A DNA stretch of 64,000 bases from Deltaproteobacteria bacterium (GTDB taxonomy: Bacteria > Desulfobacterota > GWC2-55-46 > UBA9637). Shown piece after piece: positions 2,338 to 25,373 of this stretch. The notes below the pieces were generated by a model. It was not told the DNA's origin. It saw only the letters and a program-made list of their open reading frames with translations, and did no database searches. Made by a program: the position numbers and the translations under genes. Positions within the stretch are counted from its first letter, which is position 1; the number at the start of each line of letters is the position of its first letter. Location: positions 15,155-79,154 of the forward strand of contig JACRML010000009.1 in NCBI GenBank assembly GCA_016214995.1, in the 5' to 3' direction.

Positions 2338-2646
2338 ACACCCAAAAATAGACATTGATTTTTGGGGAAACCTGTAAGTTGGCTGTTAGACAACACACCC
2401 CTAAATCCCCTCTCGAGAGGGGACTAAAGGGGTGTGTTATTTGCTACGAGCCGTAACCCACCCCTTCCCCTCCTTGGAGGGGATAAAGGGGTGGGTTGTG
2501 AGGAACAAAAATTGGCCGATAACGAAGTATGCCTGTCCCCGAGTGTCTCTATCGGGGAGCAGCCAAATCGGCTGGCTCCACTTGCTGCGAAGCGATTGCA
2601 AGTGGAAGATGTAAAATAGCGAGGTTTTTAATCGCTATTTTACGGT
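2338..2646 (-). repeat. ~300-bp structured intergenic repeat, copy A (reverse orientation relative to copies B and C)
   Basis: Ends with the ccaaaaat-N8-atttttgg hairpin and the gtaaaatagcga..tcgctattttac hairpin. Shares the core cttccacttgcaatcgcttcgcagcaagtggag / gccgatttg with 12909-13254 and 25081-25373. Confidence 0.8.
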
Positions 2647-2650
2647 TACA

Positions 2651-3805
2651 ATGGAGCGGAGCGACATGGCTGTAGCCTTTGAAAATATAAAAACAGGTAT
2701 TGATATATTAAGACAATTCTTGGTTCCAAAGATGTTTACGGTCAAACTTCTTGAGTTTGCAGAAAGTGAGGGAATACTTTCTGTTATGCGAGAGACAGGC
2801 AATTCTCCGGTAAGGACATTCGGGGGTGGGTCTGACAATTTGTGGACACGAGAAGAGTTTTATAGCGCTGTTCATAGGAGGCTGGGGTATGAGACAGGGA
2901 ATGCTGTAAGGAAAAGAATGTTGGCAATTCTGCTGGATTTTCTTGAAGAGTGTGGTCATATTTCTCAGAAAAAACCTGGCATTTATACATATAATGCAGA
3001 TGCCAAGACAACGTCGCCCCTTTCCAGCGAAGACATGGAGGTAATGAGAGAAATATTTGGTGATCAGTCTATGTTTTTTGATAAGTGTATAGAATATGCA
3101 GGTGATTTTCTAAAAGGAAAGAATTATCTTTTTGGCTTTAATAAGGGTATGGAAGATGTATGGAATAGGTTTCTTGGCAATTATGAATTTAGTTTCGCAA
3201 GGGATGTGCTTCTTAAGCTGATGACTGTCGATACAATACCGGATTGCAATATATTGGACCTTTGCTACGGGACAGGACATGGTCTGGAGCGTATATGCAG
3301 GGATTTCCCTGACGCGGATATCACAGCAATAGATTTTACAGATGATATGAGACCGTTTGCAATGTCAAGGCTTGGCAAAGTTGCTTCAAAGGTCAAATGG
3401 ATTGACGCCGGCAGATGGAATGGCTTTGGAAGTAATCTTCCTTTTGAGGTCATGGTTTTTGATATGATATTCTTCTCGTGTGGTGACCCATATATACCAG
3501 AGCATTTGCGTGAGGGTGTATACAGGGATATATTCAGGGTTTTGAAACCAGGTGGAATCTTAGGTGTGATTGCGTGGGGTTATCCTGACAGGTCCAAAAG
3601 ACATATACAGAATGAATGGGTAAGAAGGGGTATATATATTCATGACTTCGCCGAAAGTGTGTGCAATGGATGGCATGGCTTCCGTGATATCGACAGCACC
3701 ATAAAAATGACCAGAAAAATAGGTTTTGTGGGCGCCAATGCCGTTTTTAATAATTTTTATATGCTTGATTCAGCTGTGTGGATGTTTAAAAGACCTGAGG
3801 TATGA
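2651..3805 (+). CDS. class I SAM-dependent methyltransferase with an N-terminal domain of unknown function (alternative start ATG 2666, with GGAG RBS)
   Basis: Motif I ILDLCYGTGHGL; Rossmann-like MT core; 4-nt overlap with the downstream KS. Confidence 0.7.
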   Translation: MERSDMAVAFENIKTGIDILRQFLVPKMFTVKLLEFAESEGILSVMRETGNSPVRTFGGGSDNLWTREEFYSAVHRRLGYETGNAVRKRMLAILLDFLEECGHISQKKPGIYTYNADAKTTSPLSSEDMEVMREIFGDQSMFFDKCIEYAGDFLKGKNYLFGFNKGMEDVWNRFLGNYEFSFARDVLLKLMTVDTIPDCNILDLCYGTGHGLERICRDFPDADITAIDFTDDMRPFAMSRLGKVASKVKWIDAGRWNGFGSNLPFEVMVFDMIFFSCGDPYIPEHLREGVYRDIFRVLKPGGILGVIAWGYPDRSKRHIQNEWVRRGIYIHDFAESVCNGWHGFRDIDSTIKMTRKIGFVGANAVFNNFYMLDSAVWMFKRPEV

Positions 3806-5043
3806 ACAGAGAGGTTGTTGTAACAGGCATGGGTATTCTATCTCCGCTTGAATCAGGGTGTGGGCTTGAAATATTCTGGCAAGAGTTATTGAAAGGAAAA
3901 AATGCGATAAAAGAGGTTAAATCTTTTGATGCAAAAAAATACGGATGCAATGTTGCCGGCGAGGTAGAAGGATTTGCGGATGCGATCAGCGATAAATGGA
4001 TTCGTTTTCTTGATTTGGCATTTAAACAGGCAATAGAAGATGCAAAACTTGTCCCCGAAATCTTTAATCGGGGAATTGATGCAAATGCTGTTCCTTTTGG
4101 TTTATCCGTTGGCACAGTGCTTGGAGGCATACTTGCCGGTCAGGAGGCATGGTTGCGTTCCCACGCGGAGCATGGGAACGAGGGAAATAGAGAGCAGGAG
4201 CTGCCTGAAAAATACCACCTCTTTTCAGGTGTGGATTATCTGGTCAAAAAATACGGTATTAATGGCCCGAATATGAGCATATCCACAGCCTGTGCTTCCG
4301 GCACAGATGCCATTGGAATAGCATACAGAAATATATTATGGGGAAAGGCCGATGTAATGATAGCAGGCGGAGCAGACACATTGAGCGAATTTGCCTTTGC
4401 CGGCTTTAACAGCCTTAAGGCCTTGACAAAAGATAAAGTAAGACCGTTTGATAAAAATAGAGACGGCCTTGCCCTTGGTGAAGGCGCCGCATTTTTAGTG
4501 TTGGAAGAGGCAAACCATGCTAAAAAAAGAAATGTAAAAATTTACGGCAAAATCATAGGCTATGCATCAAGATCAGACGCACATCATCTTACAGGGCCTG
4601 ATAAAGAGGGGAGGGGGCTGGCAGCGGCCATTAAAGCGGTGTTAAAAGAGGCAGACATATCAAAGCCTGTCTCCGAATGCTTTTATCGGGGAGTGGATTA
4701 TATAAATGCCCACGGCACAGGCACTGTGTATAACGATGCAATGGAGACTAAGGCGATAAAGCTCGCTTTTGGCAAATCCGCATACGAAATACCGATAAGT
4801 TCCATAAAGTCAATGATAGGTCACAGCTTCGGCGCAGGAGGCGCAATAGAGGCGGCGGCATGCCTTCTTGCCATCAAGAACGGCGCAATTCCTCCCACCA
4901 TAAACTATCAGGAAAAAGGCCCTGAATGCGACCTTGATTATGTGCCTAATATAGCGAGAAAGGCCGATGTCCAAACAGCCATTTCGCTCTCTGCCGGTTT
5001 CGGGGGGCAGAATGCGGCCATCCTTTTCAGCGCAGTGGAGTAG
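3802..5043 (+). CDS. beta-ketoacyl-ACP synthase (FabF/FabB-like, catalytic)
   Basis: ISTACASGTDAIG, NAHGTGTVYND, SMIGHSFGAGG; full-length 413 aa. Confidence 0.85.
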   Translation: MNREVVVTGMGILSPLESGCGLEIFWQELLKGKNAIKEVKSFDAKKYGCNVAGEVEGFADAISDKWIRFLDLAFKQAIEDAKLVPEIFNRGIDANAVPFGLSVGTVLGGILAGQEAWLRSHAEHGNEGNREQELPEKYHLFSGVDYLVKKYGINGPNMSISTACASGTDAIGIAYRNILWGKADVMIAGGADTLSEFAFAGFNSLKALTKDKVRPFDKNRDGLALGEGAAFLVLEEANHAKKRNVKIYGKIIGYASRSDAHHLTGPDKEGRGLAAAIKAVLKEADISKPVSECFYRGVDYINAHGTGTVYNDAMETKAIKLAFGKSAYEIPISSIKSMIGHSFGAGGAIEAAACLLAIKNGAIPPTINYQEKGPECDLDYVPNIARKADVQTAISLSAGFGGQNAAILFSAVE

Positions 5044-5114
5044 CTGATAATAAAATGTCAAAAATAGTTTTATTTTAAAGATAGCTGGAAGGGTAAGTAA
5101 GGCCGTTTAACGCT

Positions 5115-5801
5115 ATGTTTATGGATACAAAGATTTACATAACAGGCATGGGTATATGCAATGAAGTCCCAGCCAAGATAGAGACGCCAAAGGCAGTGAA
5201 GACCGTCATAAAGGCAGAGGAACTGGCTCTGGCCGCAGTGTCTGCGGCGTTCAAGCAAATTAGAACTTGGGAATTAGACACTGGCATTGTCTTCGGCATA
5301 GATAATGCCATAGATAGATGCAAGGCAGAGTTCTTTAAAGGCCTTCTCGCAGAGGGGCCTATCGGCGCAAGCCCGCTGCTGTTCCCTTACACAAGCCATA
5401 ATGTCATAACAGCCCAGGCGACCATTGCCTTTGGCATAAAGGGCGAAGACATCACGATTACCAGCGGGGCATCGTCTTTTATGAAGGCCATTGGATATGG
5501 CTTTGAGTTGCTGTATAGATGTGTAATGAAGTCGGTTATTGCAGGCGGTGTCTCCGAGAATGGGGCAATGGTTATTGTAATGGAGAGCCTTGCCCCTGAT
5601 GAATTAGGAATTAGGAATTGGGAATTAGAAATTAGTAATAACGGGATTATCCTAAAAGAGATTACAGGTTTTAAGAACCCTCTACAACAGGATGAGGCTA
5701 ATGTAAAATCAATAGAGGACTCTTTTCTTTTAGTGGAAGATTTTATTAAGGGGAAAAGTAAACTTGTTACAGAAGACTGGGTATTTCAAATTAAGGCTTG
5801 A
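5115..5801 (+). CDS. truncated KS-like (thiolase-fold N-terminal-like) protein without catalytic Cys; carries an in-frame heptamer-repeat insertion
   Basis: MFMDTKIYITGMGIC... resembles a KS N-terminus. The GSG-like motif has no Cys. (gaattag)n at 5601-5635 encodes LGIRNWELEISNN. Confidence 0.5.
   Translation: MFMDTKIYITGMGICNEVPAKIETPKAVKTVIKAEELALAAVSAAFKQIRTWELDTGIVFGIDNAIDRCKAEFFKGLLAEGPIGASPLLFPYTSHNVITAQATIAFGIKGEDITITSGASSFMKAIGYGFELLYRCVMKSVIAGGVSENGAMVIVMESLAPDELGIRNWELEISNNGIILKEITGFKNPLQQDEANVKSIEDSFLLVEDFIKGKSKLVTEDWVFQIKA
5601..5635. repeat. heptanucleotide tandem repeat (gaattag)n inside a CDS; a second short run lies at 5825-5842
   Basis: Direct reading: gaattaggaattaggaattgggaattagaaattag. 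Confidence 0.9.
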
Positions 5802-5841
5802 ATCTTGCGGCATAAATCCTTATAGTATTAGGAATTAGGAA

Positions 5842-7149
5842 ATGGACTTCATATCAGATATAGACAGAAAAGACATAAAGGACATATCAGTCATTCAGGC
5901 CGAACTCCTCAAAGAAACAGTTTTCTATCTTTACAAAAACTCTCCGTTTTACAGAAAGAAAATCGCCCGCATCCCATCTATCAAGTGCATAGAGGATATT
6001 AGCGGTCTGTCCATAACAACAAAGGAAGACCTTCAGATAGACAACTGGGGTTTCCTCTGTGTGCCTAAGAACAATCTTTCAGAGATCGTTGCAACTACAG
6101 GCACAACCGGCGCGCATGTGTTCATAGGGCTTGCCAAAAAAGACATGGATAGGCTTGCGGAGAATGAAAAGAGATGCTTTTCCTATACAGGCGCCACACC
6201 GGACGACCTTTTTCTGTTATCCATTACCATGGATAATCTCTTCATCGCTGGAATGGCATACTATTCAGGGCTTCAGAGGCTTGGCGCAGGGGTTATCCGT
6301 ATGGGGCCGCATACCCCCAAAAGGCAGCTTGAGCTTATACACAGCCTTAAGCCTACCGGCATCGTGGCAGTGCCGTCTTTCATAATCGCCATTTACAAGC
6401 AGGCAGAAAAGGACAGGATAGACCTTAAAAAATCAAGCCTCAAAAAGATTGTCCTCATAGGCGAGGCCATAAGGAATGCGGATTTTTCTTCCAATACTCT
6501 TGGAAAAATGGTAGAAAAATTAAGCACGGCAGAGAGCTACTCCACCTACGGCATTACTGAGGCGCAGGTTGCATTTTGCGAATGTCAGTGTCATAAAGGG
6601 CTGCACTCTCACCCCGACCTTGTTTACGCCGAGATATTGGATGATGCAGGCAATACAGTTAAGGATGGTGAAATAGGAGAGCTTGTTGTAACCACATTCC
6701 AGATAGAGGGCATGCCGCTTTTAAGATACAGGACAGGCGACATGACCTTTAAGATAAGCGACAGATGTGATTGCGGAAGGACATCTGCCCGCATAGGGCC
6801 AATCATCGGCCGTAAGGCACAGAAGCTTAAGATAAAGGGAACGACAGTCTATCCTAAGGCCATAGAGAACATCTTGCTGGAGATAGATGGTGTTGAGAAT
6901 TATGTGATTGAGGCATATACAGGGGATGACCAGGCAGACCATGTTATCGTAAAGGTGGGCTCGCTTAAGACTCAAGACTCAAGACTCAAGACACAAGACT
7001 TAAAAGATGCTGTTTGTGAAAATATTAAGGCAAAGATAAGGGTTACGCCGCAGATTGAGATTATGCTGCCGCAGGAAGTGGAAAAGATTTTATATGAGGG
7101 CGGCAGGAGGAAGCCAATGACATTTGTGGACAGAAGGGGAAAGAGTTAG
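5842..7149 (+). CDS. phenylacetate-CoA ligase-like (PaaK / coenzyme F390 synthetase family) adenylate-forming enzyme
   Basis: ATTGTTGAHVF (P-loop-like SSGTTG motif), LRYRTGD (YRTGD). In-frame (actcaag)n at 6967-7001 encodes SLKTQDSRLKTQDLKD. Confidence 0.75.
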   Translation: MDFISDIDRKDIKDISVIQAELLKETVFYLYKNSPFYRKKIARIPSIKCIEDISGLSITTKEDLQIDNWGFLCVPKNNLSEIVATTGTTGAHVFIGLAKKDMDRLAENEKRCFSYTGATPDDLFLLSITMDNLFIAGMAYYSGLQRLGAGVIRMGPHTPKRQLELIHSLKPTGIVAVPSFIIAIYKQAEKDRIDLKKSSLKKIVLIGEAIRNADFSSNTLGKMVEKLSTAESYSTYGITEAQVAFCECQCHKGLHSHPDLVYAEILDDAGNTVKDGEIGELVVTTFQIEGMPLLRYRTGDMTFKISDRCDCGRTSARIGPIIGRKAQKLKIKGTTVYPKAIENILLEIDGVENYVIEAYTGDDQADHVIVKVGSLKTQDSRLKTQDLKDAVCENIKAKIRVTPQIEIMLPQEVEKILYEGGRRKPMTFVDRRGKS

Positions 7150-7222
7150 CGGATAGCGGATAGGAAAAGCGCATAGCGGATAGAAAAAACTAAACTCTAA
7201 ACGCTCTACGCTAAACGCTAAT
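7149..7222. repeat. intergenic heptamer tandem repeats (tagcgga)n followed by (ctaaacg)n
   Basis: agcggatagcggatagg...catagcggatag...aaactctaaacgctctacgctaaacgctaa. Confidence 0.85.
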
Positions 7223-7238
7223 AAAAAAGGGGAAAATA

Positions 7239-8375
7239 ATGACGCTTAATTATGAAACCATCCACGGCCTGGATTTTACAAATGAGGAGATAACAGCCTG
7301 TCTTAAAAGAGGAGGACTTTTAACCCTTGAGCTGGAGTTTAGCAAGGTATGCAATCTTAAGTGCATATACTGTTATGCAAGCGCAGGCAATGCCATGTCT
7401 GATGAAATGACCCTTGCTGAAATAAAGAACGTTATAGACCAGGCAGCAGAACTTGGGGCAGAAAAGATAATTCTCCTTGGCGGCGGCGAGCCTCTTATGT
7501 ATGAGGACATCCCATTGGTTGTAGAATATATTCATAAAAAGGGGCTTAAACAAAGTATTTTCACAAATGGCATGCTTCTCACAAAAGAGCTTAGCGGTTT
7601 TTTGTTTGAACGAAATGTTTCGGTAGTTGTCAAACACAATAGCAATATCCCGGAGGTTCAGGATAAGCTGGGAGGCGTCAAAGGCGCTTACGACAAGATT
7701 CGGCATGGTTTTGAATATCTGCTGGAGGCAGGCTATCCCAATGGCGCAGCTCAGCTTGGCATACAGACTGTTATATGCCGGCAGAATTTAAAAGAGATTC
7801 CTGATATGTGGATATGGGCGCGGGAGAGAGGCATCATACCTTACTTTGAGATAATTACAAATCAGGGAAGGGCAAAAGAGCATAAAGAACTTCATGTCTC
7901 AAATGAAGAGATACGAAAGGTATTTGAGGAGCTTGAATATATAGATGAGACAAGATTTGGGCACAAATGGAGTCCGCATCCAACCATTGCATCATTTACA
8001 TGCAAGAGGCATCTATATTCATGTCTGGTAAACTCACAGGGTTATATTCAACCGTGCACAGGTATTGATATGCCTGTTGGAAATGTTAAACATGAGAAAT
8101 TAAAAGATATATTAAAGAAAAGCCCTGTAATCCAGAAACTAAGAAATATCTATGCCAATATTCAGGGCGAATGCAAGGCCTGCGAATTTGCCTTTGACTG
8201 TTACGGCTGCAGAGGGAATGCGTATCAGACCACCGGCAATTACCTTGCCCCTGACCCTGCATGCTGGCTGAACAAGAAAGCCAAACGACAAGCAGGCGCA
8301 AAAAAGCAAGCCGTTTCTGAGGTCCCGCTTGGCGGGGAGGGCAGCGTTGCAGTAGATACTACAATAAATTTCTAA
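7239..8375 (+). CDS. radical SAM enzyme with C-terminal SPASM-like Cys-rich domain
   Basis: CNLKCIYCYA (CxxxCxxC) at the N-terminus; C-terminal CKACEFAFDCYGCRGNAY and other Cys clusters. Confidence 0.8.
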   Translation: MTLNYETIHGLDFTNEEITACLKRGGLLTLELEFSKVCNLKCIYCYASAGNAMSDEMTLAEIKNVIDQAAELGAEKIILLGGGEPLMYEDIPLVVEYIHKKGLKQSIFTNGMLLTKELSGFLFERNVSVVVKHNSNIPEVQDKLGGVKGAYDKIRHGFEYLLEAGYPNGAAQLGIQTVICRQNLKEIPDMWIWARERGIIPYFEIITNQGRAKEHKELHVSNEEIRKVFEELEYIDETRFGHKWSPHPTIASFTCKRHLYSCLVNSQGYIQPCTGIDMPVGNVKHEKLKDILKKSPVIQKLRNIYANIQGECKACEFAFDCYGCRGNAYQTTGNYLAPDPACWLNKKAKRQAGAKKQAVSEVPLGGEGSVAVDTTINF

Positions 8376-8380
8376 TTTCT

Positions 8381-8415
8381 AAACCCCCACACCAAAGATT
8401 TTGGTGTGGGGGTTT
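8381..8415 (+). terminator. perfect 15-bp-stem hairpin after the SPASM radical-SAM gene (terminator or attenuator candidate)
   Basis: aaacccccacaccaaa-gatt-ttggtgtgggggttt followed by a weak T-rich tract. Confidence 0.45.
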
Positions 8416-8464
8416 AGGATTTCTTAATACCATGTCAACTTATTTAAGTCGTTCACTATAATTC

Positions 8465-9922
8465 ATGCAAATCCTCCTCATATCTGCCAACAGAGAAAAA
8501 ACCCCATACCCTGTATCTCCCATCGGGCTTGCATATATTGCGTCAGCCCTTATTAAGGACAACCACGATGTTGAGATACTTGACCTCTGTTTTGCAGAAG
8601 ATGTTATTTCAAGTCTGAAACAAACCATCGCAAGATTCAAGCCGGACATCATCGGCCTTTCCATCAGAAATATAGACAATCTTACATATCCAAAGAGCGT
8701 TTTTTACCTCCCTTATATTAAGTCTGTAGTTGATGAAATCAAACAAACCTGCCTGTCCCGTCGGGACGGCAGACAGGTGGATATTCCTCTTGTGATGGGC
8801 GGCTCTGGTTTTTCTCTCTTCCCTGAGGGTGTTTTAAGATACACAGGGCTTGAATTCGGCATAGTCGGAGAAGGGGAAAACGGCTTTTGCGAGTTTGTAA
8901 AAAGACAGGAAAGAAACAAGTGGGTTTATGATATTCCTAACCTGGCATATCTAAAAGGCGACAGATTTATTCAGAACCCGATAGCCTTCACAAGTGGTTT
9001 TTCAAAGCCTGATAGACTGTTTCTGGATAATGAAAGATATTTTCAATTTGGCGGAATGGCCAATATCCAGACTAAGAGGGGATGTCCCTTCAAGTGCATA
9101 TACTGCACATATCCATATCTTGACGGCAGCCGCATAAGATGCAGGGATGTGGATGATATAGTGGATGAAGTGGAGGAACTGGTTAATAAATACGGCATTG
9201 ACTATATATTTTTTGTTGACGACATATTTAACCAGCCTGTTGGCCATGCGATGGACATTTGCAGGGGCATCATAAAAAGGGGATTAAAAATAAACTGGAC
9301 ATGCTTTGCCACTCCAAAGGGCATGACACCGGAACTCTTAAGCCTTATGAAAGACGCAGGATGCATGGGCGTTGAATTCGGCACAGATGCTGCAAGCGCA
9401 GAGACGCTTCGCAGCATGGGTAAGTCATTTACCCCTGATGATGTGAGAAGGGTTTCCATCATGTGCGATGATGCAGGGCTTGAGGCTGCGCATTATCTTA
9501 TATTTGGCGGCCCAGGCGAAACAGAAAAGACGCTGGAGGAGTCCTTTGCGTTCATGGACGAGAATAACCCCAGGGCTGTAATTGCCATGACAGGCCTGAG
9601 GATTTATCCCAATACAGGGCTTGAAAAGATGAGCCTTGCACAAGGGGTTATAAAAAATGGCGAGGATATACTCCACCCCCATTTTTATATCTCTCCTGCA
9701 ATAGGTGAGGAAAGGCTTTTATCTATGGTCAAAGACCATGCCATCAGCCAGCCAAACTGGATAGTCCCTGGTTTGGATATAAGAAATTCAGAGGAGACAA
9801 TGACTGTCTTAAGAAAGTTCGGCAACAGAGGGCCTTTGTGGAATATGCTTAAAAAAAATGTCAAATACCAAAGTTCAAATGTCAAAACTTCAAAGTCAAA
9901 AGACTATGATGTATCTAAGTAA
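8465..9922 (+). CDS. B12-binding (class B) radical SAM enzyme
   Basis: N-terminal cobalamin-binding-like fold (MQILLISAN...VSPIGLAYIASAL..DVEILDL), then a radical SAM core RGCPFKCIYCTYP. The C-terminal tail is encoded by a heptamer-like repeat (9868-9905). Confidence 0.8.
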   Translation: MQILLISANREKTPYPVSPIGLAYIASALIKDNHDVEILDLCFAEDVISSLKQTIARFKPDIIGLSIRNIDNLTYPKSVFYLPYIKSVVDEIKQTCLSRRDGRQVDIPLVMGGSGFSLFPEGVLRYTGLEFGIVGEGENGFCEFVKRQERNKWVYDIPNLAYLKGDRFIQNPIAFTSGFSKPDRLFLDNERYFQFGGMANIQTKRGCPFKCIYCTYPYLDGSRIRCRDVDDIVDEVEELVNKYGIDYIFFVDDIFNQPVGHAMDICRGIIKRGLKINWTCFATPKGMTPELLSLMKDAGCMGVEFGTDAASAETLRSMGKSFTPDDVRRVSIMCDDAGLEAAHYLIFGGPGETEKTLEESFAFMDENNPRAVIAMTGLRIYPNTGLEKMSLAQGVIKNGEDILHPHFYISPAIGEERLLSMVKDHAISQPNWIVPGLDIRNSEETMTVLRKFGNRGPLWNMLKKNVKYQSSNVKTSKSKDYDVSK

Positions 9923-12902
9923 GAGGCTAAAGGCAAAAGGCTTTAGGTTTGTAATTTTTCTTTTCAACCTATTTTTCTTCAGCCTACAGCATGATATTTC
10001 CCACACAGCCAATCTTGACACCTCTTTTCAGTTTTCCACTATAGAAACAGAACATTTCTCCATCCACTTTCATCAGGGGCTTGAGGGTGCGGCTCACAAA
10101 GCTGCAGCTATTGCAGAGGAAGCGTACTATACGCTTGCCACAGGATTTAATTGGGAGCCAATGGAAAAGACGCAGATGGTCCTGATAGATAACTCCGACT
10201 TTACCAATGGCTGGGCAAAGGTGCTTCCCTATAATACGATTTACATACAGGTTGTGCCGCCGTTAGTAGACATGACAATAGGCGAATATGAAGACTGGCT
10301 CAAGATACTCATAATTCACGAATACAGTTATATACTCACAACTGACCCTGCAATGGGATATTCAAAAATAATGAGGCGCATATTCGGCAAGCCTCTTCCA
10401 GGAGGAGACCCCTTTTCCTTTCTTATGTTTATTGCTGCCGGGCCGCCGAATGTGTTTTTACCGAGATGGTGGCACGAGGGTATTGCAACATGGTCCGAGA
10501 CAGAGCATACAAAAGTAGGCAGAGGTAAAAGCACATATTATGAAATGATAATCAGAATGGCAGTTGCGGATGATAATATTCCGACAGTTGATAAGATAAA
10601 CGGTGAAGTCCCATACTGGCCTGATGGGCATATGCCCTATATATTTGGCCTAAGGCTTCAAAAATATATTGCAGATAAGTATGGTAGAGAGGCGCTGGGA
10701 AAGCTTAATTTAAAGCATGCCGGAAGATTCCCATATTTTTTAAACGGCGCACCCCAGAATTTGTTTGAAGGAGAAAGCTATATCTCCTTATATCGCGAGA
10801 TGGTGAAGGACTTAAAAACAGAAGAGAGGGAACAGATAGAGATATTAAAACAGGTGCCTTTTACACCATTTAAAATATTAAATATAAATGGTGAAATGCT
10901 TACCAATCCAAGATATTCTCCTGATGGCAGTATGATTGCATTCAATATGCGGGACCCACATGGGCATGAGGCAATTATGATAATGAACAAGGACGGTACA
11001 GATGTAGCAGGGTCTGTCAGAAGGCTTTATTCAGACCACATCATTGCATGGTCGCCGGACAGCGAATCTATATATTTCAGCCAGGCAGAGGTTAACAGAG
11101 GGTTTAATATCTATCAGGATTTATATTCGTATGACATAAAGAAGGCAAAGCTTAAAAGACTAACCCAGGGCCTTCGCATAAAAGAGCCTGATATATCGCC
11201 GGATGGGAAAAAAATTGCTGTTATTTTAAGCGACAGAGGCAATCAAAACCTTGCCCTCCTTACTTTTGAAAGATACAAACCCAAATTGGAAATAATCCTT
11301 CCTTCACCCCGCTTTGAAAAAGATAGGCTGCTGGGATTGCGGGTTTCTGGTCCAAGGTGGTCTCCGGATGGCAATTTTATTGCCTATTCTGTAACAACCA
11401 ATAATGGGAAGAGCAGCCTGTACATTTACGATACAATAGAAAAAACCCATAAACAACTCTTTGAAGATGCTGGGAACAATGCATATCTCACATGGTCAAG
11501 GGATAGTAAATATATTATCTATATGTCAGATAAGACGAGAGTATACAACCTTTTTGCATATTCAATGGAGCAAGACAGGCAGTATCAGATTACCCATATA
11601 CTTGGCGGCGCATTCCAGCCTGATGTTTCCACAGACGGCAAAGAGATTATTTTTTCCAGTTATAATTCCAGAGGTTTTAAGATTGCTAAAATTGAATATA
11701 ACCCTGAAAAGTGGATGACAATACCCAGTCCTACGATAAAGCCATATTGGAATGAGGAAAGTTCAGAGTTGAGAGTTGAGAGTTCGGAGTTGAAACCAAA
11801 AATCCAAAACCCGCAATCCGAAATTAAATCCGACTCTAATCCTTATTCGGCCCTTAATAGCCTCCTTCCCAGATTCTGGCTGCCTACACTTTCTAGTGAT
11901 CACGATGGCGCGGTAATTGGCGCTTTGACTTTTGGTCAGGATGTGCTTGGTTATAATACATATTATCTTAAATTGGATTATGGCGTTGAAAGCAGCGAGA
12001 TATACTACGATGCGGTATATATGAATGACTATATATATCCTACGCTGAGGCTGCGGACATACACAACACCTGTCTTATATTCGGATTTTCTTGAGAGAGG
12101 CGATTACTATGAATTAAACAGAAGTATTATTTTCAGCATGTCTCTGCCAATAAATTATTTAGAGTCGCACTACAGGTTTATTCTTGGCTATCATTTGCAA
12201 AAGCAGGAGGCATTAAGCGGCCTTACAAATAACAAGTTCAATGAGGTAGACGTATTTCATGGCCGTCGCGACAATGTATTCGCAGGCATTGAATTTTCCA
12301 ACAGTCTAAAATATCCATATTCCATAAGCCATGAAGAGGGTCGTAATATAAGTTTTTTATATAGATATTATAGCAAATACATAGGGAGTGATATTAATTC
12401 AAGGGAATACATTGCATCGTATTCGGAATATTTTCTCCTTCCCTTTTCAGGTTCAATGAGGCACAACGTAATTTATCTTAATCTTAAGGGTGCTGCATCG
12501 GATGGTGACAGGATAAACCAACAGGCATTTCAACTGGGCGGTTATTCTTCTCAATCAGAATTTCCCTTACGCGGTTATCCTTCAAGATTTGCAGCAGGGC
12601 AATATGTGGCTACAGGTACTTTGGAGTACCGTGCGCCTTTATGGTATATATTCCATGGTATAAATACAAAACCTTTTTTCTGGGACAGATTGCACGGCGC
12701 TGTTTTTACCGATGCAGGAGAGGTATGGGATGACACCAGAGATTTTTCATCTAGCAGATTAAAGGTAGGTGCTGGTATAGAGGTAAGACTTGATATGACC
12801 ATAGGTTACTTGCTGGAGATTACTCCTACCCTTGGTATTGCTCACGGCTTTAACCAGAACGGAGAGACACAGGTCTATTTTACCATATACACAAATCTTT
12901 AA
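9906..12902 (+). CDS. large secreted protein: signal peptide, TolB-like PD40 beta-propeller repeats, and a C-terminal Omp85/BamA-like beta-barrel-like region (start uncertain; the ORF is open from 9858)
   Basis: Multiple SPDG/SRDS...I.F/Y PD40-like repeats. C-terminus: RGYPSRF...GAVFTDAGEVW...GAGIEVRL...QVYFTIYTNL (Omp85-like). In-frame (agagttg)n at 11764-11794. Confidence 0.5.
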   Translation: MMYLSKRLKAKGFRFVIFLFNLFFFSLQHDISHTANLDTSFQFSTIETEHFSIHFHQGLEGAAHKAAAIAEEAYYTLATGFNWEPMEKTQMVLIDNSDFTNGWAKVLPYNTIYIQVVPPLVDMTIGEYEDWLKILIIHEYSYILTTDPAMGYSKIMRRIFGKPLPGGDPFSFLMFIAAGPPNVFLPRWWHEGIATWSETEHTKVGRGKSTYYEMIIRMAVADDNIPTVDKINGEVPYWPDGHMPYIFGLRLQKYIADKYGREALGKLNLKHAGRFPYFLNGAPQNLFEGESYISLYREMVKDLKTEEREQIEILKQVPFTPFKILNINGEMLTNPRYSPDGSMIAFNMRDPHGHEAIMIMNKDGTDVAGSVRRLYSDHIIAWSPDSESIYFSQAEVNRGFNIYQDLYSYDIKKAKLKRLTQGLRIKEPDISPDGKKIAVILSDRGNQNLALLTFERYKPKLEIILPSPRFEKDRLLGLRVSGPRWSPDGNFIAYSVTTNNGKSSLYIYDTIEKTHKQLFEDAGNNAYLTWSRDSKYIIYMSDKTRVYNLFAYSMEQDRQYQITHILGGAFQPDVSTDGKEIIFSSYNSRGFKIAKIEYNPEKWMTIPSPTIKPYWNEESSELRVESSELKPKIQNPQSEIKSDSNPYSALNSLLPRFWLPTLSSDHDGAVIGALTFGQDVLGYNTYYLKLDYGVESSEIYYDAVYMNDYIYPTLRLRTYTTPVLYSDFLERGDYYELNRSIIFSMSLPINYLESHYRFILGYHLQKQEALSGLTNNKFNEVDVFHGRRDNVFAGIEFSNSLKYPYSISHEEGRNISFLYRYYSKYIGSDINSREYIASYSEYFLLPFSGSMRHNVIYLNLKGAASDGDRINQQAFQLGGYSSQSEFPLRGYPSRFAAGQYVATGTLEYRAPLWYIFHGINTKPFFWDRLHGAVFTDAGEVWDDTRDFSSSRLKVGAGIEVRLDMTIGYLLEITPTLGIAHGFNQNGETQVYFTIYTNL

Positions 12903-12908
12903 GCATCA

Positions 12909-13254
12909 GTAAAATAGCGAAAACCTCTCTATTTTAATCACTTCGGGTCTAATTCCCCGAAGCTTGCTTCGTAATTTTTTTTGTATCAACAACAATTGTA
13001 GCTTCTGTGAGGTGTTTTCAGATACCCCGCAGCTTGCTGCGGGGTAGTTCATTCTTCCACTTGTAATTGCTTCGCAGCAAGTGGAGGCAGCCGATTTGCC
13101 CGACCCAAGCTTTGCTTGGGTGCCCCGAGTGCGTTATCGGCGCATTTTTGCTCCTCACCGTATCGGTGAACATACGGCTCGTCGCAAAAATTGTCCGCTG
13201 CCTAGTCTGGCAGCCAACTTGCAGGTTTCCCCAAAAATCAATGTCTATTTTTGG
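12909..13254 (+). repeat. ~300-bp structured intergenic repeat, copy B
   Basis: Same core and terminal ccaaaaatcaatgtctatttttgg hairpin as copies A and C; extra hairpins inserted near the 5' end. Confidence 0.8.
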
Positions 13255-13297
13255 AAGCATAATTGCCTTTTTGCCGAGGATATGGTATCAATAAAAT

Positions 13298-14032: not shown

Positions 14033-14206
14033 AAAAACCGTGAATCGTGATCTTGTTCCGTGACCATGAAGAAAGAAGTTGAGAAGATGGGAAGTTAAGA
14101 AGTTGAAATGGTAAGTTTTTTCTCAACTTCTCAATTTCTTAATTTCTGCATTTTCACGGTTATAGACAACGGACATGGACAACGGTATTTTATAAGGGAG
14201 ATAACC

Positions 14207-14455
14207 GTGTCGGACATTAAAGAAAAACTTAAAGAGATGCTGGTCAAAAGGCTGAAACTCAAAATGACAGCGCAGGATATTAAGGATGATGTCCCGCTCT
14301 TTGGAGAGGGTGGGTTGGGCCTTGATTCTATAGATGCGTTGGAACTTGTTGTTGGATTGCAGAAGGAGTTTAATGTTGTCATCAATGATAAGTCTGTAGC
14401 AGAAAAGGTTCTGGTATCTGTGAATAGCATTGTAGGGTTTATTGAAGAAAAGTAG
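14207..14455 (+). CDS. acyl carrier protein (GTG start with GGGAG RBS; the ORF-track ATG at 14108 is unlikely)
   Basis: LGLDSIDALELV phosphopantetheine-attachment motif (DSL/DSI); ~82 aa. Confidence 0.8.
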   Translation: MSDIKEKLKEMLVKRLKLKMTAQDIKDDVPLFGEGGLGLDSIDALELVVGLQKEFNVVINDKSVAEKVLVSVNSIVGFIEEK

Positions 14456-14523
14456 CAGGTTTACAATCGGTATGTTTATTGGTGTGCTTAAAAGACGTCC
14501 ACAAATGGGCAATCGCAAGAATT

Positions 14524-14943
14524 ATGAAAAATAATCCTCTGGACAGCTTGCCTCACAGCTACCCATTCAGGTTTTTAGATAAAATCATTGAATTAAGCGA
14601 TAAAAGAGGTGTTGCAATAAAAAATGTGACTATGAATGAAGAATTTTTTCAAGGTCATTTTAAAGAAAACCCAATAATGCCTGGTGTTTTGATAATAGAG
14701 ACAATGGCACAACTGGCAGGGCTTATAATGAATTGCGGTAAGGAAGAAAATAAGATTGCCTACCTTGCCCAGGTAAAGAATATTAAATTTAAAAGGCCTG
14801 TTATCCCAGGCGACCAATTGAAAATTTCGGCTGAAATAGGGCAGGATTTTGGTTCACTGGCAAGTTTTTCAGTAGCAGTGCATATAGATAATAATGTTGC
14901 GGCAGAAGGTGAACTGGTGATGGCTGTCAGTAAGGGTACTTAA
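14524..14943 (+). CDS. fabZ: 3-hydroxyacyl-ACP dehydratase, FabZ/FabA-like hotdog fold (start uncertain; ORF opens at 14479)
   Basis: LPHSYPFRFLDKI...FFQGHF..NPIMPGVLIIE (FabZ signature H and E region). Confidence 0.75.
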   Translation: MKNNPLDSLPHSYPFRFLDKIIELSDKRGVAIKNVTMNEEFFQGHFKENPIMPGVLIIETMAQLAGLIMNCGKEENKIAYLAQVKNIKFKRPVIPGDQLKISAEIGQDFGSLASFSVAVHIDNNVAAEGELVMAVSKGT

Positions 14944-14964
14944 AAAACCAAAAGGAGGGCTAAA

Positions 14965-15321
14965 ATGGCAAGGAAAATATTCATGATGATATTTGCTGCA
15001 TCACTTTTATTTTCTCATATAGCTAATTCTCAGGATGCCTCATTTGATATCAAGGCTGCCAAAGATAGATGGGAGCCTTCATCTATCACAATAAAAAAAG
15101 GGGAGAAGGTCAGTATTAAGTTTATATCAGTTGATGTTGACCATGCTGTTGAGCTTGGCGAGTTTGGCTTGAAAAAAGTTCTCATACCCGAAAAGGATTC
15201 TGTTACTCTCGAGTTTACAGCAACTAAAACAGGCACATTTTCTTTTCCATGCATAAAATATTGCAGTTGGAGGCATCTGGTTGGCGCAAGGCCGAGATTG
15301 GAAATTAAGGTGGTAGAATGA
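14965..15321 (+). CDS. small secreted protein, possibly a cupredoxin-like fold (tentative)
   Basis: N-terminal signal peptide; beta-rich region with DHAVELG ... PCIKYCSWRH; no firm family assignment. Confidence 0.3.
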   Translation: MARKIFMMIFAASLLFSHIANSQDASFDIKAAKDRWEPSSITIKKGEKVSIKFISVDVDHAVELGEFGLKKVLIPEKDSVTLEFTATKTGTFSFPCIKYCSWRHLVGARPRLEIKVVE

Positions 15322-15677
15322 TTTTTTCCGTTGGCGTAGATATCGCGAGCATCGAGCGGTTAAAAAAATCTGTGTATAATAATGCCTTTCTTGACAGACT
15401 GCTTACTGATAACGAAAGGCAATATGTCTTTACAAAAAGGCATTCATACAGGCACATTGCAGGCAGATTTGCTGCAAAAGAGGCTGTTATGAAGGCATTA
15501 GGCACAGGTTGGAGTAAAGAGATTGGGTGGAGGGATATCGAAATTATAAATACGTCTTCTGGCAGACCTGTAGTACGGTTGCATTCAAACGTCGCCGTTG
15601 TTGCACATGGGAAAAAGGTTTTTTTAAGTCTTGCATATGCAAAGGATATTGCTTTGGCAGTTGCCATTGTAGAATGA
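15318..15677 (+). CDS. acpS: holo-ACP synthase (4'-phosphopantetheinyl transferase AcpS)
   Basis: MIFSVGVDIASIERL...RFAAKEAVMKALGTG, ~119 aa, typical AcpS. Confidence 0.8.
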   Translation: MIFSVGVDIASIERLKKSVYNNAFLDRLLTDNERQYVFTKRHSYRHIAGRFAAKEAVMKALGTGWSKEIGWRDIEIINTSSGRPVVRLHSNVAVVAHGKKVFLSLAYAKDIALAVAIVE

Positions 15678-15681
15678 TGTA

Positions 15682-16335
15682 ATGAAATATCTGATAGTAA
15701 TTCCTGCCTATAATGAAGAAAGATACATTGCTTCCCTCTTAAATAACCTTCCCGTTGTTACAAGAGACATCATAGTTGTTGATGATGGTTCAAAAGATGC
15801 CACATACCAGATTGTGCAGAAAATAGGCATTCCTGTAATCCGTCAGCCTCATCAGGGCAAAGGAGCTGCACTTAAGACCGGTTTTAAATATGCTATTGAA
15901 AACGGATATGACTGGGTAATTACAATAGATGGGGATGGTCAGCATGATTGGAAGGATATTCCTAGGTTTATTGAAACAATATCCAAAGGGGGCGCTGATG
16001 TGATTATCGGTTCAAGGATGGCTGATGTTGCAGCGATGCCGATAGTAAGAAGAGTTACAAACAAATTTATGTCCAGCCTATTGTCAAAATTGATAGGCCA
16101 TTATATAGCAGATACCCAGTGTGGTTTCAGAGCAATAAATTCAAAAGTTTTAAGGGATATTGTTCTTGAAACTTCGCATTATGACACAGAGTCTGAACTT
16201 CTTATAAAGGCGGGCAGGGCAAAGTATAATATCTCATCAATCCCTATCAGAACTATTTATAATGGTTCACAGAGTAATATAAATAAATTTGTAGATACTA
16301 TGCGTTTTGTAAAACTTTTATGGAAGGCATTGTGA
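15682..16335 (+). CDS. family 2 glycosyltransferase (dolichol-phosphate mannosyltransferase-like)
   Basis: IVVDDGSKDAT, DGDGQHD motifs of GT2/DPM1-like enzymes. Confidence 0.75.
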   Translation: MKYLIVIPAYNEERYIASLLNNLPVVTRDIIVVDDGSKDATYQIVQKIGIPVIRQPHQGKGAALKTGFKYAIENGYDWVITIDGDGQHDWKDIPRFIETISKGGADVIIGSRMADVAAMPIVRRVTNKFMSSLLSKLIGHYIADTQCGFRAINSKVLRDIVLETSHYDTESELLIKAGRAKYNISSIPIRTIYNGSQSNINKFVDTMRFVKLLWKAL

Positions 16336-17186
16336 CATCTATCAACCATCAACAAATTTATGTTTCCTGCAATATATGCGGTTCTTCCAACGAAAAACTT
16401 ATTACAACCCAAAATGGCTACAAGGTTGTTAAATGCATAGGTTGTGGTTTTGTATATGTGAATCCAAGGCCAACCAGTGAAACCCTTAAACAACTTTATC
16501 TGACATACCTGCCGGAAAAGATTGAAGACCCATTGCTGTGGGATACGTACATGAAAGATGTATTTGCAAAGGCTGCTAATATCTTGGTGAAACAGTTTCC
16601 TGATGGAGGAAAGATACTTGATATTGGCTGCGGCTACGGTTTTTTTCTTTCACGGATGAAAGCGAAAGGATGGCAGGTATATGGCATTGATGTGTCAGAA
16701 ACTGCTGTTTCTTATGCATCAGGCCATGGTCTGGATGTAGCATTAGGGACATTGGATAATGTCAAATATGAAGATAAATCATTTGATGTTGTAACATTAT
16801 TCTATGTGCTTGAGCATCTTCCTGACCCATTAAAGGCCATCCAGGAGATAAGAAGGATTTTAAATCCAAATGGGTTGTTATTACTGCGAGTGCCGCATAC
16901 AACACCAATAGTAAGGATATTATCTTTACTGGGCATAAAAAATAATCTGTATGACCCACCATTTCATTTAAACGATTTTTCTAATGTTGCTATTAAGGGT
17001 ATTTTGAAAATGGCCGGCTTCCATAATATACACACATTTATTGGGGGTGTTACAAGCCCTCCTGGCGCCGCAGTACGACTGACAACATTATTTTTCGGGC
17101 TGCTTGCAGAGGCGGTCTATCGCTTAAGCCTTGGGAAATTTCTTTTACCCGGGGTAGCAAAGACTACTATTGCAAAAAAAATATAA
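16320..17186 (+). CDS. class I SAM-dependent methyltransferase with N-terminal Zn-ribbon
   Basis: CNICGSS...CIGCG zinc ribbon; ILDIGCGYGFF motif I. Confidence 0.75.
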   Translation: MEGIVTSINHQQIYVSCNICGSSNEKLITTQNGYKVVKCIGCGFVYVNPRPTSETLKQLYLTYLPEKIEDPLLWDTYMKDVFAKAANILVKQFPDGGKILDIGCGYGFFLSRMKAKGWQVYGIDVSETAVSYASGHGLDVALGTLDNVKYEDKSFDVVTLFYVLEHLPDPLKAIQEIRRILNPNGLLLLRVPHTTPIVRILSLLGIKNNLYDPPFHLNDFSNVAIKGILKMAGFHNIHTFIGGVTSPPGAAVRLTTLFFGLLAEAVYRLSLGKFLLPGVAKTTIAKKI

Positions 17187-17210
17187 GAATAAGGCTGCTT
17201 ATCTTATTTT

Positions 17211-23427: not shown

Positions 23428-23463
23428 ATAAGATAAAAGTTTCAGGTTTCAAGATACAAGTTG

Positions 23464-23489
23464 CCAGAAAATGCAAATGCATTTTCTGG
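23464..23489. promoter_or_regulatory. perfect 26-bp palindrome 37-62 nt upstream of the AsrA-like gene (operator candidate), flanked by heptamer-type inverted repeats
   Basis: ccagaaaatgcaaatgcattttctgg is its own reverse complement. Confidence 0.4.
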
Positions 23490-23553
23490 GCTTAAACCTT
23501 TCAACGTTTGTCTTATAACTTGCGACCTGAAACTTGCAACTTGGAACTTCCTA

Positions 23554-23910: not shown

Positions 23911-23951
23911 CATCACTCCTCCTACGATAATATATAACATAGCTGTTTTCC

Positions 23952-25028
23952 TTATGCCATTTCAACAGCATTCCGCAGCTTGTTTTTTACCCTATACATG
24001 GCCTGGTCGGCCATTTGAATAAGTTGTGATCCTTCATGTGCATCATCTGGTATGGAAGCGACGCCAAAACTGGCAGTCAAATGGAGATTTAATCCGTCAT
24101 CCTGTAAAAAGATGTGTTTAGCAATTCTTATCCTTAATTTTTCTGCAATCTGATATGCTTGCTGTTTAGATGTTTGCGGCATTACTATCACAAACTCATC
24201 GCCGCCGTATCTGCACGCAATATTAACCTTCCGCAGGCCATTGGAAATTAGTTTTGATATTTCGGTCAGGAGTTTGCTGCCCATCAGGTGTCCATGGGCA
24301 TCGTTTACCTCCTTAAATTTATCAAGGTCAATAAAAATCATGGCAAGATTGCTATTATACCGCTTTGCCCTTTCCACCTCATAATCCAGGAATCGGTATA
24401 GGTGTCTTGCATTATACAGCTTTGTCAGGTCATCTGTTATTGTTAATTCCTGAATCTTTTGGAAAAATTTAGCATTTTCTATTGCAATTGCGGTATAGTC
24501 AGCAAGGGTGGTAAGAACAAGGAGGTCTTCCTCTTTGAAACCGCCCGGCTCAGACATCTTATTTATAAGCTCTATTACGCCAAGACATTTTTCTCTGCTT
24601 TTTAAAGGCACAGCTATTATTGATTTTGTAGTAAATTTACTGGATTCATCTACCTTCTTACAGAATCTGGGGTCTTTATTAACATCCGGCACAAGGAGGG
24701 GCGTCCTTTCTTTGGCCACCCAGCCGGCTATTCCTTCTCCCACCTTTACTCTTAGATTTTTTATCTTGTCCGCGCCTTCTCCCACAGCTATCTCAAAAGA
24801 AAGTTCATTTTTTTCATCATCCACAAGGAGGAGAGACCAATTTTTAGGCTGAAGCAGTTCGCTTACCTTTTCCATTACAATATTCAAAATTTCCTTTAAA
24901 TCCAGGGTTGAGGTAATTGCCTTGCCTAATTCACTAAATGTGGTGAGCTGTTTAAGTCTCTGGCTGTGCTCTGAAGCAAAGGTAGATTCGGGCATTGTTT
25001 CTACGATCTCTTTTTCAATATGGGCCAT
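23952..25028 (-). CDS. GAF domain-containing diguanylate cyclase (GGDEF)
   Basis: RYGGDEFVIVMP GGDEF motif; N-terminal GAF-like region. Confidence 0.8.
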   Translation of the reverse strand: MAHIEKEIVETMPESTFASEHSQRLKQLTTFSELGKAITSTLDLKEILNIVMEKVSELLQPKNWSLLLVDDEKNELSFEIAVGEGADKIKNLRVKVGEGIAGWVAKERTPLLVPDVNKDPRFCKKVDESSKFTTKSIIAVPLKSREKCLGVIELINKMSEPGGFKEEDLLVLTTLADYTAIAIENAKFFQKIQELTITDDLTKLYNARHLYRFLDYEVERAKRYNSNLAMIFIDLDKFKEVNDAHGHLMGSKLLTEISKLISNGLRKVNIACRYGGDEFVIVMPQTSKQQAYQIAEKLRIRIAKHIFLQDDGLNLHLTASFGVASIPDDAHEGSQLIQMADQAMYRVKNKLRNAVEMA

Positions 25029-25080
25029 ATTTCTTAAAAGTTATCGTATTTAATGGGGAAAATCAAGGAATAATCTGTCT

Positions 25081-25373
25081 GTAAAATAGCGATTGAACCG
25101 GTGCTATTTTACATCTTCCACTTGCAATCGCTTCGCAGCAAGTGGAGCCAGCCGATTTGCTCGCCCCAATCTTTGCTTGGGTGCCCCGATTTAGTTATCG
25201 GCTATTTTTGCTCCTCACCGTATCCTTCCCCTGTTCCTCTCCATGAGGGGGATAAAGGGGGAGGGCTGGTCGTAAATAACACACCCCTTTAGTCCCCTCT
25301 CGAGAGGGGATTTAGGGGTGTGTTGTCTGGCAGTCAACTTGCAGGTTTTCCCAAAAATCAAGGTCTATTTTGT
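25081..25373 (+). repeat. ~300-bp structured intergenic repeat, copy C
   Basis: gtaaaatagcgattgaaccggtgctattttac hairpin, core cttccacttgcaatcgcttcgcagcaagtggag, G-rich palindromes, terminal ccaaaaatcaaggtctattttgtgg. Confidence 0.8.

Follow-up and report, generated by a model that had tools for sequence, protein, structure and literature searches.

The window, by which we mean the whole 64 kb stretch of DNA analysed here, contains three full copies of a repeat of about 300 bp, all of which had been recognized to within a few bases in an earlier reading made from the letters alone (hereafter the sequence-only reading). Profile HMM placements are 2341-2645(-), 12908-13254(+) and 25080-25374(+), at E-values between 1e-57 and 1e-79. 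Copy wA (305 bp, 2341..2645, minus strand) lies antisense to both of its neighbours as identified by Pfam, a ketoacyl synthase gene (1089-2264) and a methyltransferase gene (2651-3805), and is bounded by the target-site duplication TTACA (left 2336..2340, right 2646..2650). Copy wB (349 bp, 12907..13255, plus strand) stands in sense orientation between an Omp85/beta-propeller gene (9858-12902) and fabG (13298-14032) and is bounded by AGCAT (left 12902..12906, right 13256..13260), the left AGCAT overlapping the stop codon of the upstream gene. Copy wC (298 bp, 25079..25376, plus strand) has degenerate termini (CTGTAAAAT / TATTTTGTGG) and is antisense to a GGDEF gene (23952-25028, minus strand) and to a class IV aminotransferase gene (25358-26227, minus strand), whose ORF takes its last six codons and stop codon from the 3' end of wC. 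As had been noticed, the repeats are intergenic but inside operons, and they lengthen the intergenic spacers within operons of an unusual lipid-biosynthesis cluster.

The common 5' hairpin, core and 3' module described in the sequence-only reading are found in the full copies. That reading had also placed G-rich palindromes in the middle of every copy, which is true of wA (P2 at 2393..2437 and P1 at 2456-2496, both minus strand) and of wC (P1 at 25224-25265 and P2 at 25279-25323, both plus strand) but not of wB, where a private insert of 114 nt follows the 5' hairpin instead (about 12937-13050). This insert carries two terminator-like hairpins, found in no other copy. In addition, wA carries module i3a and wB carries module i3b. 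The repeats have no coding capacity: their internal ORFs, rightly called spurious at the outset, reach at most 80 aa, are not conserved between copies, and as protein queries returned 3 and 5 database relatives, which all seem to be further copies or noise.

Parts of the repeat also occur alone. The 18-nt core of the 3' hairpin (AAAATCAANGTCTATTTT, at most 2 mismatches) is present seven times in the window, against 0.11 expected. Two solo hairpins had been listed, at 42966-43000 and 59108-59150; both are seen (from 42967 and 59109), but the list was incomplete, and a third at 37632-37654(-) and a weak one at 33824-33841 can be added. The hairpin at 59109..59138 (plus strand, CCACAAAAATCAATGTCTATTTTTGGG) has no target-site duplication and immediately precedes an SLT transglycosylase gene (TTG at 59149), a ZIP transporter gene lies about 80 nt downstream of the partly degenerate one at 42967..42990 (plus strand), and that at 37632..37654 (minus strand, 2 mismatches) has CCTTAA on either side and lies 18 nt upstream of a DUF218 gene. 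A proposed core fragment at 41346-41425 does contain a repeat match of about 40 nt (41381-41420, 85%), but the matching part belongs to one of the optional nested modules (cccgacccaag..cttgggt), not to the invariant core. It is a solo copy of i3b (cccgacccaaCCttcGGttgggt, 41381..41420, minus strand), with both sides of one stem pair changed relative to the wB copy.

The family extends beyond the window. Ten further copies were found, at nine loci in three 'Deltaproteobacteria' groundwater MAGs and on one metagenome contig, giving 13 copies overall, of which three lie within the 64 kb window and at least six in MAG JACRNJ01. One of these (L003) is truncated, and the 12 others keep both ends and the same interior order. 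Outside the window the copies sit in both orientations between unrelated housekeeping genes (e.g., rplT/pheS and mutL/miaA). It should be noted that all further copies were retrieved with a pattern derived from the core, so that conservation of the core is partly by construction. Scanning metagenomes with this pattern returned only the one contig and a viral scan returned nothing, which suggests that the family is rare in public data. Assemblies made from short reads break off or leave gaps at the element, as a repeat in multiple copies would lead one to expect: contig L001 ends 28 nt inside it, and L014 has a run of 110 N exactly at the wB site.

Full copies measure 215-349 bp, with a basic form of about 219 bp, and thus fall below the 500 bp that delimits the miniature inverted-repeat transposable element, or MITE. 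Their ends form imperfect inverted repeats of 16 bp (CCGTAAAATAGCGATT / CCCAAAAATAGACATT) that match at 12 of 16 positions, a level reached at a rate of 8e-5 among random 16-mer pairs drawn from the window; similarity between the ends stops after about 16 bp. The terminal repeats are short as well as imperfect, a trait that we counted against the MITE reading. Of the 12 full copies, 8 have exact direct repeats of 5 bp or more at their flanks, compared with 3 of 132 mismatched flank pairs used as a control. They are TGTAA, AAGCAT, GCATGT, TTGAAT, TTTAA, TCTTGCC, ATTGAC and GCGATGTGC, all eight compatible with a 5-bp duplication around CC...GGG, some being longer than 5 bp. Four full copies (wC, L004, L005 and L011) show no clear target-site duplication.

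Comparison with related genomes reveals presence/absence polymorphism, orthologous sites being empty in L017, L019 and L021. The beta-propeller/fabG junction of L017 (GCA_035283945.1), orthologous to that of the window, spans 42 nt and has a single GAGCAT; it is a precise empty site of wB. With 12907-13260 (wB plus one AGCAT) taken out, the window aligns to L017 at 84% identity, gap-free at the junction. The orthologous ketoacyl synthase/methyltransferase junctions of L019 and L021 measure 0-8 nt, against 386 nt in the window, and MAG JACPZB01 carries the element at another locus (L008) with none at the lipid-cluster junctions. The L017 junction is the one precise empty site obtained: apart from the N run in L014, a different gene or spacer lies upstream of fabG in L012, L013, L015 and L018, which precludes the comparison there. 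Because presence or absence goes together with the target duplication, these sites indicate insertion rather than inheritance of a gene.

Taken together, the paired ends, the flanking and nested duplications, the empty site and the occurrence of copies in either orientation in several genomes make it very probable that the repeats are copies of a MITE, i.e., a small non-autonomous DNA transposon. This was one of three candidates proposed at the outset, and the other two, a REP/BIME-like element and a family of small RNAs, did not fare as well. The family is an ordinary one without earlier description; the family is new, the type of element well known. It has moved recently within a lineage of uncultured groundwater bacteria (Thermodesulfobacteriota/'Deltaproteobacteria' MAGs). 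A transposase with matching ends was looked for in the window, about 178 kb of related loci and the plasmid and phage collections and none came up, which counts against the MITE reading; mobilisation in trans is therefore inferred.

The existence of solo terminal hairpins and of the truncated copy L003, together with an IS5/IS1182-like transposase gene about 600 bp from the L005 copy, could be taken to mean that the repeats are decayed solo ends of a known insertion sequence and not a mobile miniature element. This is highly improbable given that 12 copies retain both ends and an identical interior order and that plasmid and phage records hold nothing similar to the element. The L005 transposase gene is flanked by different repeats (CCCTTGACA) and was therefore rejected as the partner transposase. 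Since both ends are hairpins, transposition of the IS200/IS605 type (hairpin ends, no duplication) was also considered, and was rejected because the target duplication is verified against an empty site. Likewise, a Tn3-derived TIME would have inverted repeats of about 38-40 bp with Tn3 homology, whereas similarity here stops at about 16 bp and blastn against plasmid-borne Tn3-family ends gave no match. The AT-rich duplications of 5 bp (or 6 bp) are those of TIMEs (TTACA, AGCAT, TTTAA, ATTGA and others), but they are not diagnostic because other IS families share them.

The short G+C-rich palindromes in a variable mosaic, the intergenic positions and the occurrence in both orientations also recall REP/BIME/REPIN-type elements spread by a RAYT (Y1/HUH) transposase. 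Such HUH/RAYT-type transposition is not expected to leave target duplications or precise empty sites. The whole unit has both, with 5-bp duplications, and it spans 219-349 bp against 20-40 bp for REPs. None of its palindromes begins with GTAG or CGTC, the tags described for REPs in PMC3733652, and there is no RAYT gene among the scanned ORFs of the window. The REP/BIME identity once suggested for the whole element can accordingly be given almost no weight, though its mosaic of nested palindromes does look BIME-like.

Predicted folding is extreme, as the sequence-only reading had anticipated, each copy folding into multiple stems far better than its shuffles (z = -5.6 to -9.9). These stabilities, the location of the copies inside operons, where they are probably transcribed, and the paired change that separates the solo module at 41381-41420 from its wB counterpart would fit a family of structured non-coding or cis-regulatory RNAs whose hairpins are selected as RNA. 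The Rfam and covariation checks proposed for that candidate did not support it. No Rfam family reached gathering score in the window, and on the copies themselves permissive thresholds gave only sub-threshold miRNA or snoRNA noise. RNAalifold gave a covariation term of +1.6, with nearly all stems invariant and the few changes breaking pairs; double changes affect 3 of 48 pairs, all in poorly aligned regions, while the terminal and core stems do not vary, the copies being too similar for a strong test. Consensus hairpin stems are nearly free of G-U pairs, so that both strands fold equally well, like DNA palindromes. The copies also lie in either orientation relative to host genes and their transcription, and their presence/absence with target duplication marks insertion, contrary to an inherited gene. 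Selection of the hairpins as RNA is hence very unlikely, and the repeats are not a new type of RNA gene.

Longer copies of the MITE carry nested palindromic modules, two types of which have their own 5-bp duplications: comparison with uninserted copies shows TCCAC and ACTTG duplicated at the borders of the inserted hairpins i2 and i6. This suggests nested transposition rather than slippage in module copy number. We propose that a transposase encoded elsewhere, presumably of the DDE type, binds the imperfect 16-bp terminal inverted repeats (CCGTAAAATAGCGATT ... AATGTCTATTTTTGGG), each terminus also forming part of a hairpin, and that insertion into AT-rich intergenic DNA, through a staggered cut of 5 bp, would generate the 5-bp duplication. 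Small palindromic units would then have been gained by nested insertion and the interior further reshaped by internal recombination, with composite copies remaining mobile. Nested insertion and recombination would account both for a middle that varies between copies and for folding predicted to be so extreme. For the host the consequences are probably close to neutral, amounting to an extra structured spacer in operon transcripts.

One further reading adds to the MITE reading and is compatible with it. A sigma-54-like -24/-12 motif (TGGCAG-N5-TTGCA) occurs near the 3' end in wB (TGGCAGccaacTTGCA, 13208..13223, plus strand, 75 nt upstream of the fabG ATG), in wC (TGGCAGtcaacTTGCA, 25328..25343, plus strand) and in L002, L011 and L007, and the MITE might thus also have a host function, providing an outward sigma-54 promoter that places downstream genes under enhancer-binding-protein control. 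By our estimate such a 10-position motif would arise by chance in a 219-bp consensus with an expectation of only ~1e-3. An NtrC-type sigma-54 activator is encoded in the window (29423-30868), two of the three copies aimed at a downstream gene retain the motif, and in wB the terminator-like hairpins precede it, so that a new promoter could be useful there. However, no more than 5 of 12 copies keep the motif intact. AA or GA replaces GG in wA, L004, L005, L006 and L010, and AC replaces GC in wA (where the equivalent reads TAACAG..TTACA) and L008; in L009 the motif is absent although the copy points at a gene, and in wC and L002 it is intact yet aimed antisense into genes. Orientation and motif integrity are not significantly associated (2/3 versus 2/8) and are confounded by subfamily descent, and the motif was spotted post hoc. 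We therefore regard this host function as improbable, and since 7 of 12 copies have a broken motif, we rejected the idea that a sigma-54 promoter is the primary explanation. Scans for sigma-70 promoters and intrinsic terminators found no consistent site common to the copies, and comparison of the 3' hairpin with an IHF site (AATCAAnGTCTAT versus WATCAANNNNTTR) leaves one mismatch in the TTR part.

A joint reading, in which the element is a mobile sigma-54 promoter cassette and its 27-29-bp CC...GG hairpins are transposable units in their own right, is likewise improbable from what the sequences offer. Were it true, the 3' module (TGGCAG-N5-TTGCA, then the terminal hairpin as 5' leader) would fire outward to control fabG-ACP-fabA of the lipid cluster at wB and miaA in a relative (L007), and copies aimed antisense into genes would have been inactivated by GG>AA or GC>AC mutations. 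The hairpins, which have 5-bp duplications of their own, would rank with the smallest known transposable units, building mosaics by nested insertion. An active motif would also provide an example of regulon rewiring by a MITE.

The importance of the family lies mainly in annotation, because its members yield spurious ORFs and break short-read assemblies (L001 and L014). Hence, we would suggest that they be masked and not annotated as regulatory RNAs. The family also represents a clean case of a MITE that is still moving while gaining nested mini-palindromes.

Prokaryotic MITEs are described in PMC10969869 as shorter than 500 bp, with short terminal inverted repeats, direct repeats and no transposase gene, as having AT-rich intergenic targets and as giving transcripts predicted to form very stable stem-loops. 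The element shares these traits with Correia of Neisseria, QMITE2 of Coxiella and MITEAba12 of Acinetobacter, and its possible promoter or IHF-like motifs have counterparts reported for Correia elements (PMC10969869). It differs from all three in that no sequence similarity was detected in the collections searched, that each terminus is embedded in its own hairpin and that the interior consists of stacked nested small palindromes. Correia elements duplicate TA. For QMITE2 the duplication is given as 7-9 bp (PMC10969869), compared with 5 bp here.

Like TIMEs as characterized in PMC4133298, the element combines similar size, AT-rich targets and 5- or 6-bp duplications with a mosaic non-autonomous tendency. 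TIMEs have inverted repeats of about 40 bp that match those of the Tn3 family and are usually found on plasmids, in a single copy (PMC4133298), unlike the present element, whose inverted repeats of about 16 bp begin with CC(G/C) and which has multiple copies on chromosomes. REP-type elements measure 20-40 bp and have GTAG/CGTC tags (PMC3733652) and are linked to RAYT transposases (PMC3116915). BIMEs, REPs and REPINs of Enterobacteria and Pseudomonas resemble the element as intergenic, hairpin-forming mosaics of short palindromes inside operons. Neither the ends nor the insertion products agree with these groups, in that Tn3 ends begin with GGGG and REPs make no target duplication, whereas the element moves as a whole unit with a 5-bp duplication. 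ERIC elements of Enterobacteria have insertion variants with optional internal insertions at fixed points. Modular small repeats and a variable number of internal modules are shared with BOX of Streptococcus pneumoniae (PMC3049150). The element is nevertheless unrelated to BOX and ERIC in sequence and host, and is set apart from them in that 5-bp duplications of their own accompany at least two module types.

Three full copies of the repeat, as claimed by the sequence-only reading, are real: by sequence reading, repeat detection, MAFFT and BLAST, the blocks common to them are 88-100% identical, and a profile HMM built on 12 copies places them at 2341-2645 on the reverse strand (wA) and at 12908-13254 (wB) and 25080-25374 (wC) on the forward strand. 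The common blocks comprise a 5' hairpin (GTAAAATAGCGA..TCGCTATTTTAC), a core (CTTCCACTTGCAATCGCTTCGCAGCAAGTGGAG-CAGCCGATTTG ... GTTATCGGC) and a 3' module terminating in CCCAAAAATCAAnGTCTATTTTTGGG. Every full window copy folds far more stably than shuffled controls (z = -5.6 to -9.9). For the 3' hairpin core, the window has seven occurrences where 0.11 would be expected; the seven include three solo copies and a weak solo match at 33824. Two of the solo copies, at 42967 and 59117, had already been noticed, and the third, on the reverse strand at 37636 (37632-37654), has CCTTAA on either side. What had been taken near 41400 for a reverse-orientation fragment of the core corresponds to no more than an optional 40-nt module. 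At wC, a class IV aminotransferase ORF (25358-26227, reverse strand) extends into the element at 25358-25376 and takes from it its last 6 codons (QPQNRP) and stop codon, so that the ORF's original C-terminus or stop was probably displaced by the insertion. A 71-nt AT-rich, partly palindromic stretch (2265-2335; tgcaaattgtaaa...tttacaatttaaaatttgca) separates wA from the KAS stop codon and may be an additional small insertion.

Several lines of evidence indicate transposition. The element begins and ends with CCGTAAAATAGCGATT ... AATGTCTATTTTTGGG, and its first 16 nt match the reverse complement of its last 16 at 12 positions (CCGTAAAATAGCGATT / CCCAAAAATAGACATT), a level that 16-mer pairs drawn at random from the window reach at a rate of 8e-5. 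In 8 of 12 copies the ends are abutted by exact direct repeats of 5-9 bp, as against 3 of 132 control pairings in which the 5' and 3' flanks came from different copies, and all eight are compatible with a 5-bp duplication around CC...GGG. For example, wA is bounded by TTACA (2336-2340 and 2646-2650) and wB by AGCAT (12902-12906 and 13256-13260). An empty site was found in GCA_035283945.1 (L017), where the orthologous interval from the beta-propeller gene to fabG is 42 nt and contains ...atctaTGAGCATaattgcc...; when 12907-13260 is removed from the window, the resulting sequence aligns to L017 at 84% identity, gap-free at the junction. Likewise, the KAS/methyltransferase junction that holds wA measures 0-8 nt at two orthologous loci (L019 and L021), the former belonging to MAG JACPZB01, in which the element is present at another locus (L008). 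None of the orthologous loci L012-L021 contains a copy by the profile HMM. The element has no coding capacity, its internal ORFs being at most 80 aa long and varying from copy to copy.

Prokaryotes were scanned with a 24-base core pattern, using one genome per species. Nine loci lie in three 'Deltaproteobacteria bacterium' MAGs from NC groundwater (JACQEJ01, JACRNJ01 with six loci, and JACPZB01), and a JGI metagenome scan added one contig; a viral scan found none, nor were there plasmid or phage matches. The nearest relatives by window-protein homologues are labelled Thermodesulfobacteriota. In other genomes the element occurs in both orientations, flanked by unrelated housekeeping genes: between rplT and pheS, between mutL and miaA, between two periplasmic binding protein genes, between a thioesterase gene and nnr/yjeF, and upstream of an RF-1-domain gene. 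Two assemblies break down at the element: in an ENA contig, about 100 Ns stand at the position that wB occupies in the window (L014, 3862-3960), and a Logan contig stops 28 nt inside the 3' hairpin (L001, 1-28).

In an alignment of the 12 full copies, L002 and L011 represent the basic form, about 219 bp long, from which longer copies differ by discrete blocks. These are a 114-nt insert in wB, a 27-nt hairpin CCTTGACAAATTATAATTTGTCAAGGG bounded by duplicated TCCAC (L005, L006), one or two 28-29-nt hairpins CCCTTGACA..TGTCAAGG, each bounded by duplicated ACTTG (L004-L007, L010), two alternative hairpins between GCCGAT and ATCGGC, and two G-rich palindromes, P1 and P2. L007 and L008 resemble a wA-like copy that has undergone P1/P2 recombination. 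Block sharing is nested (P2, then the hairpin module i6, a second i6, and the module i2); composite copies therefore went on transposing after gaining inserts. At L005, an IS5/IS1182-like transposase ORF (5731-6870; DUF772 and DDE_Tnp_1) adjoins hairpins (CCCTTGACA...TGTCAAGGG; 5352-5437 and 5757-5789) that match in type the ones nested in that MAG's copies, and it may be the source of the nested mini-hairpins. A 55-bp derivative at L004 (4681-4735) keeps both tips (CCCAAAAATTGATTTTTGGG...AATAGCTATCTTACGG) with the interior almost gone and no clear target duplication. Together with the solo 27-bp 3' hairpins, it suggests persistence or movement of very short derivatives as well.

The sequence-only reading had also proposed a structured RNA. 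Rfam gave no match at gathering score, the remainder being far sub-threshold miRNA/snoRNA-like noise. The covariation check did not favour an RNA either: the RNAalifold term was +1.6, no variation occurs in the terminal and core stems, and occasional substitutions disrupt pairs. G-U pairs are almost absent from the consensus hairpins, so both strands fold alike, as DNA palindromes do. With mixed orientation and insertion polymorphism, these results leave a selected RNA gene without support. The other proposal, a REP/BIME-like element (or REPIN), fails on unit size, on the lack of the GTAG/CGTC tags described in PMC3733652, and on the presence of target duplications.

A host effect was considered through TGGCAG-N5-TTGCA in the 3' module, a good match to a sigma-54 -24/-12 promoter in wB, wC, L002, L011 and L007. 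The window codes for an NtrC-type activator, and in wB 75 nt separate the motif from fabG downstream, with two terminator-like hairpins preceding the motif. Of the 12 copies, 7 have a mutated motif or none, two intact ones point antisense into genes, and L009 points at a gene yet lacks it. A sigma-54 promoter role is an improbable, unproven addition to the MITE reading. No sigma-70 promoter or intrinsic terminator common to the copies was found.

The element is very probably a non-autonomous transposon, which would be moved in trans by a transposase making 5-bp staggered cuts. No partner was found among the window ORFs scanned, and the IS5/IS1182-like gene at L005 was rejected as it sits among CCCTTGACA hairpins, not the element's ends. 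Duplications of 5 bp are known for IS1380, Tn3, IS3 and a few others. The CC at the tips fits IS1380, but this is only a lead.

Other features of the window deserve mention. A second, unrelated repeat family occupies 54229-54370 and 63170-63233, with 64 nt 94% complementary (gctgttgacaaagtcatcaacagccttgattacacagatta...); the longer 54-kb copy looks like another MITE from its gttgacaaa ... tttgtcaac boundaries. Runs of AGTCAGA/AGTCAAG form inverted repeats directly 3' of gene ends (38254-38324, 46712-46788, 52111-52158, 54167-54200) and may represent a REP-like motif or a terminator specific to the lineage. Palindromes GTCATTCC...GGAATC / GGATCC..GGAATGAC lie in two long intergenic regions (37469-37575 and 42575-42690), and the spacer 42540-43000 is densely packed with several hairpins. 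An HNH endonuclease gene with three homing-endonuclease-associated repeats (43850-44731) is followed by two CCCCC..GGGGG palindromes at 44873 and 45300, 427 nt apart (44873-45331). The 'lipid cluster' (163-17186) encodes four ketoacyl synthases, methyltransferases, an AMP-binding enzyme, a B12-radical-SAM-like gene, an Omp85/beta-propeller protein, FabG, ACP, a FabA/ApeP-like dehydratase, cupredoxin, ACPS and a glycosyltransferase, and is syntenic in several Thermodesulfobacteriota-like contigs (L015, L017, L019). A region of short ORFs (31018-31703) holds repeats coding for Lys/Ala/Glu/Pro, some in tandem and others dispersed, and would encode a low-complexity, histone-H1-like or repeat protein.

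The repeats constitute a genuine MITE family that had not been described before, notable for its hairpin-embedded termini and growth via nested palindrome insertion and, as far as public data show, confined to a few Thermodesulfobacteriota-like MAGs from groundwater. The element resembles TIMEs in size and in a 5-6-bp AT-rich duplication (PMC4133298), but TIMEs need Tn3-like IRs of about 40 bp, which it lacks. With prokaryotic MITEs, the candidate of the sequence-only reading that is borne out, it shares the defining features summarised in section 2.1 of PMC10969869: terminal repeats, target duplications, empty sites and absence of coding capacity.
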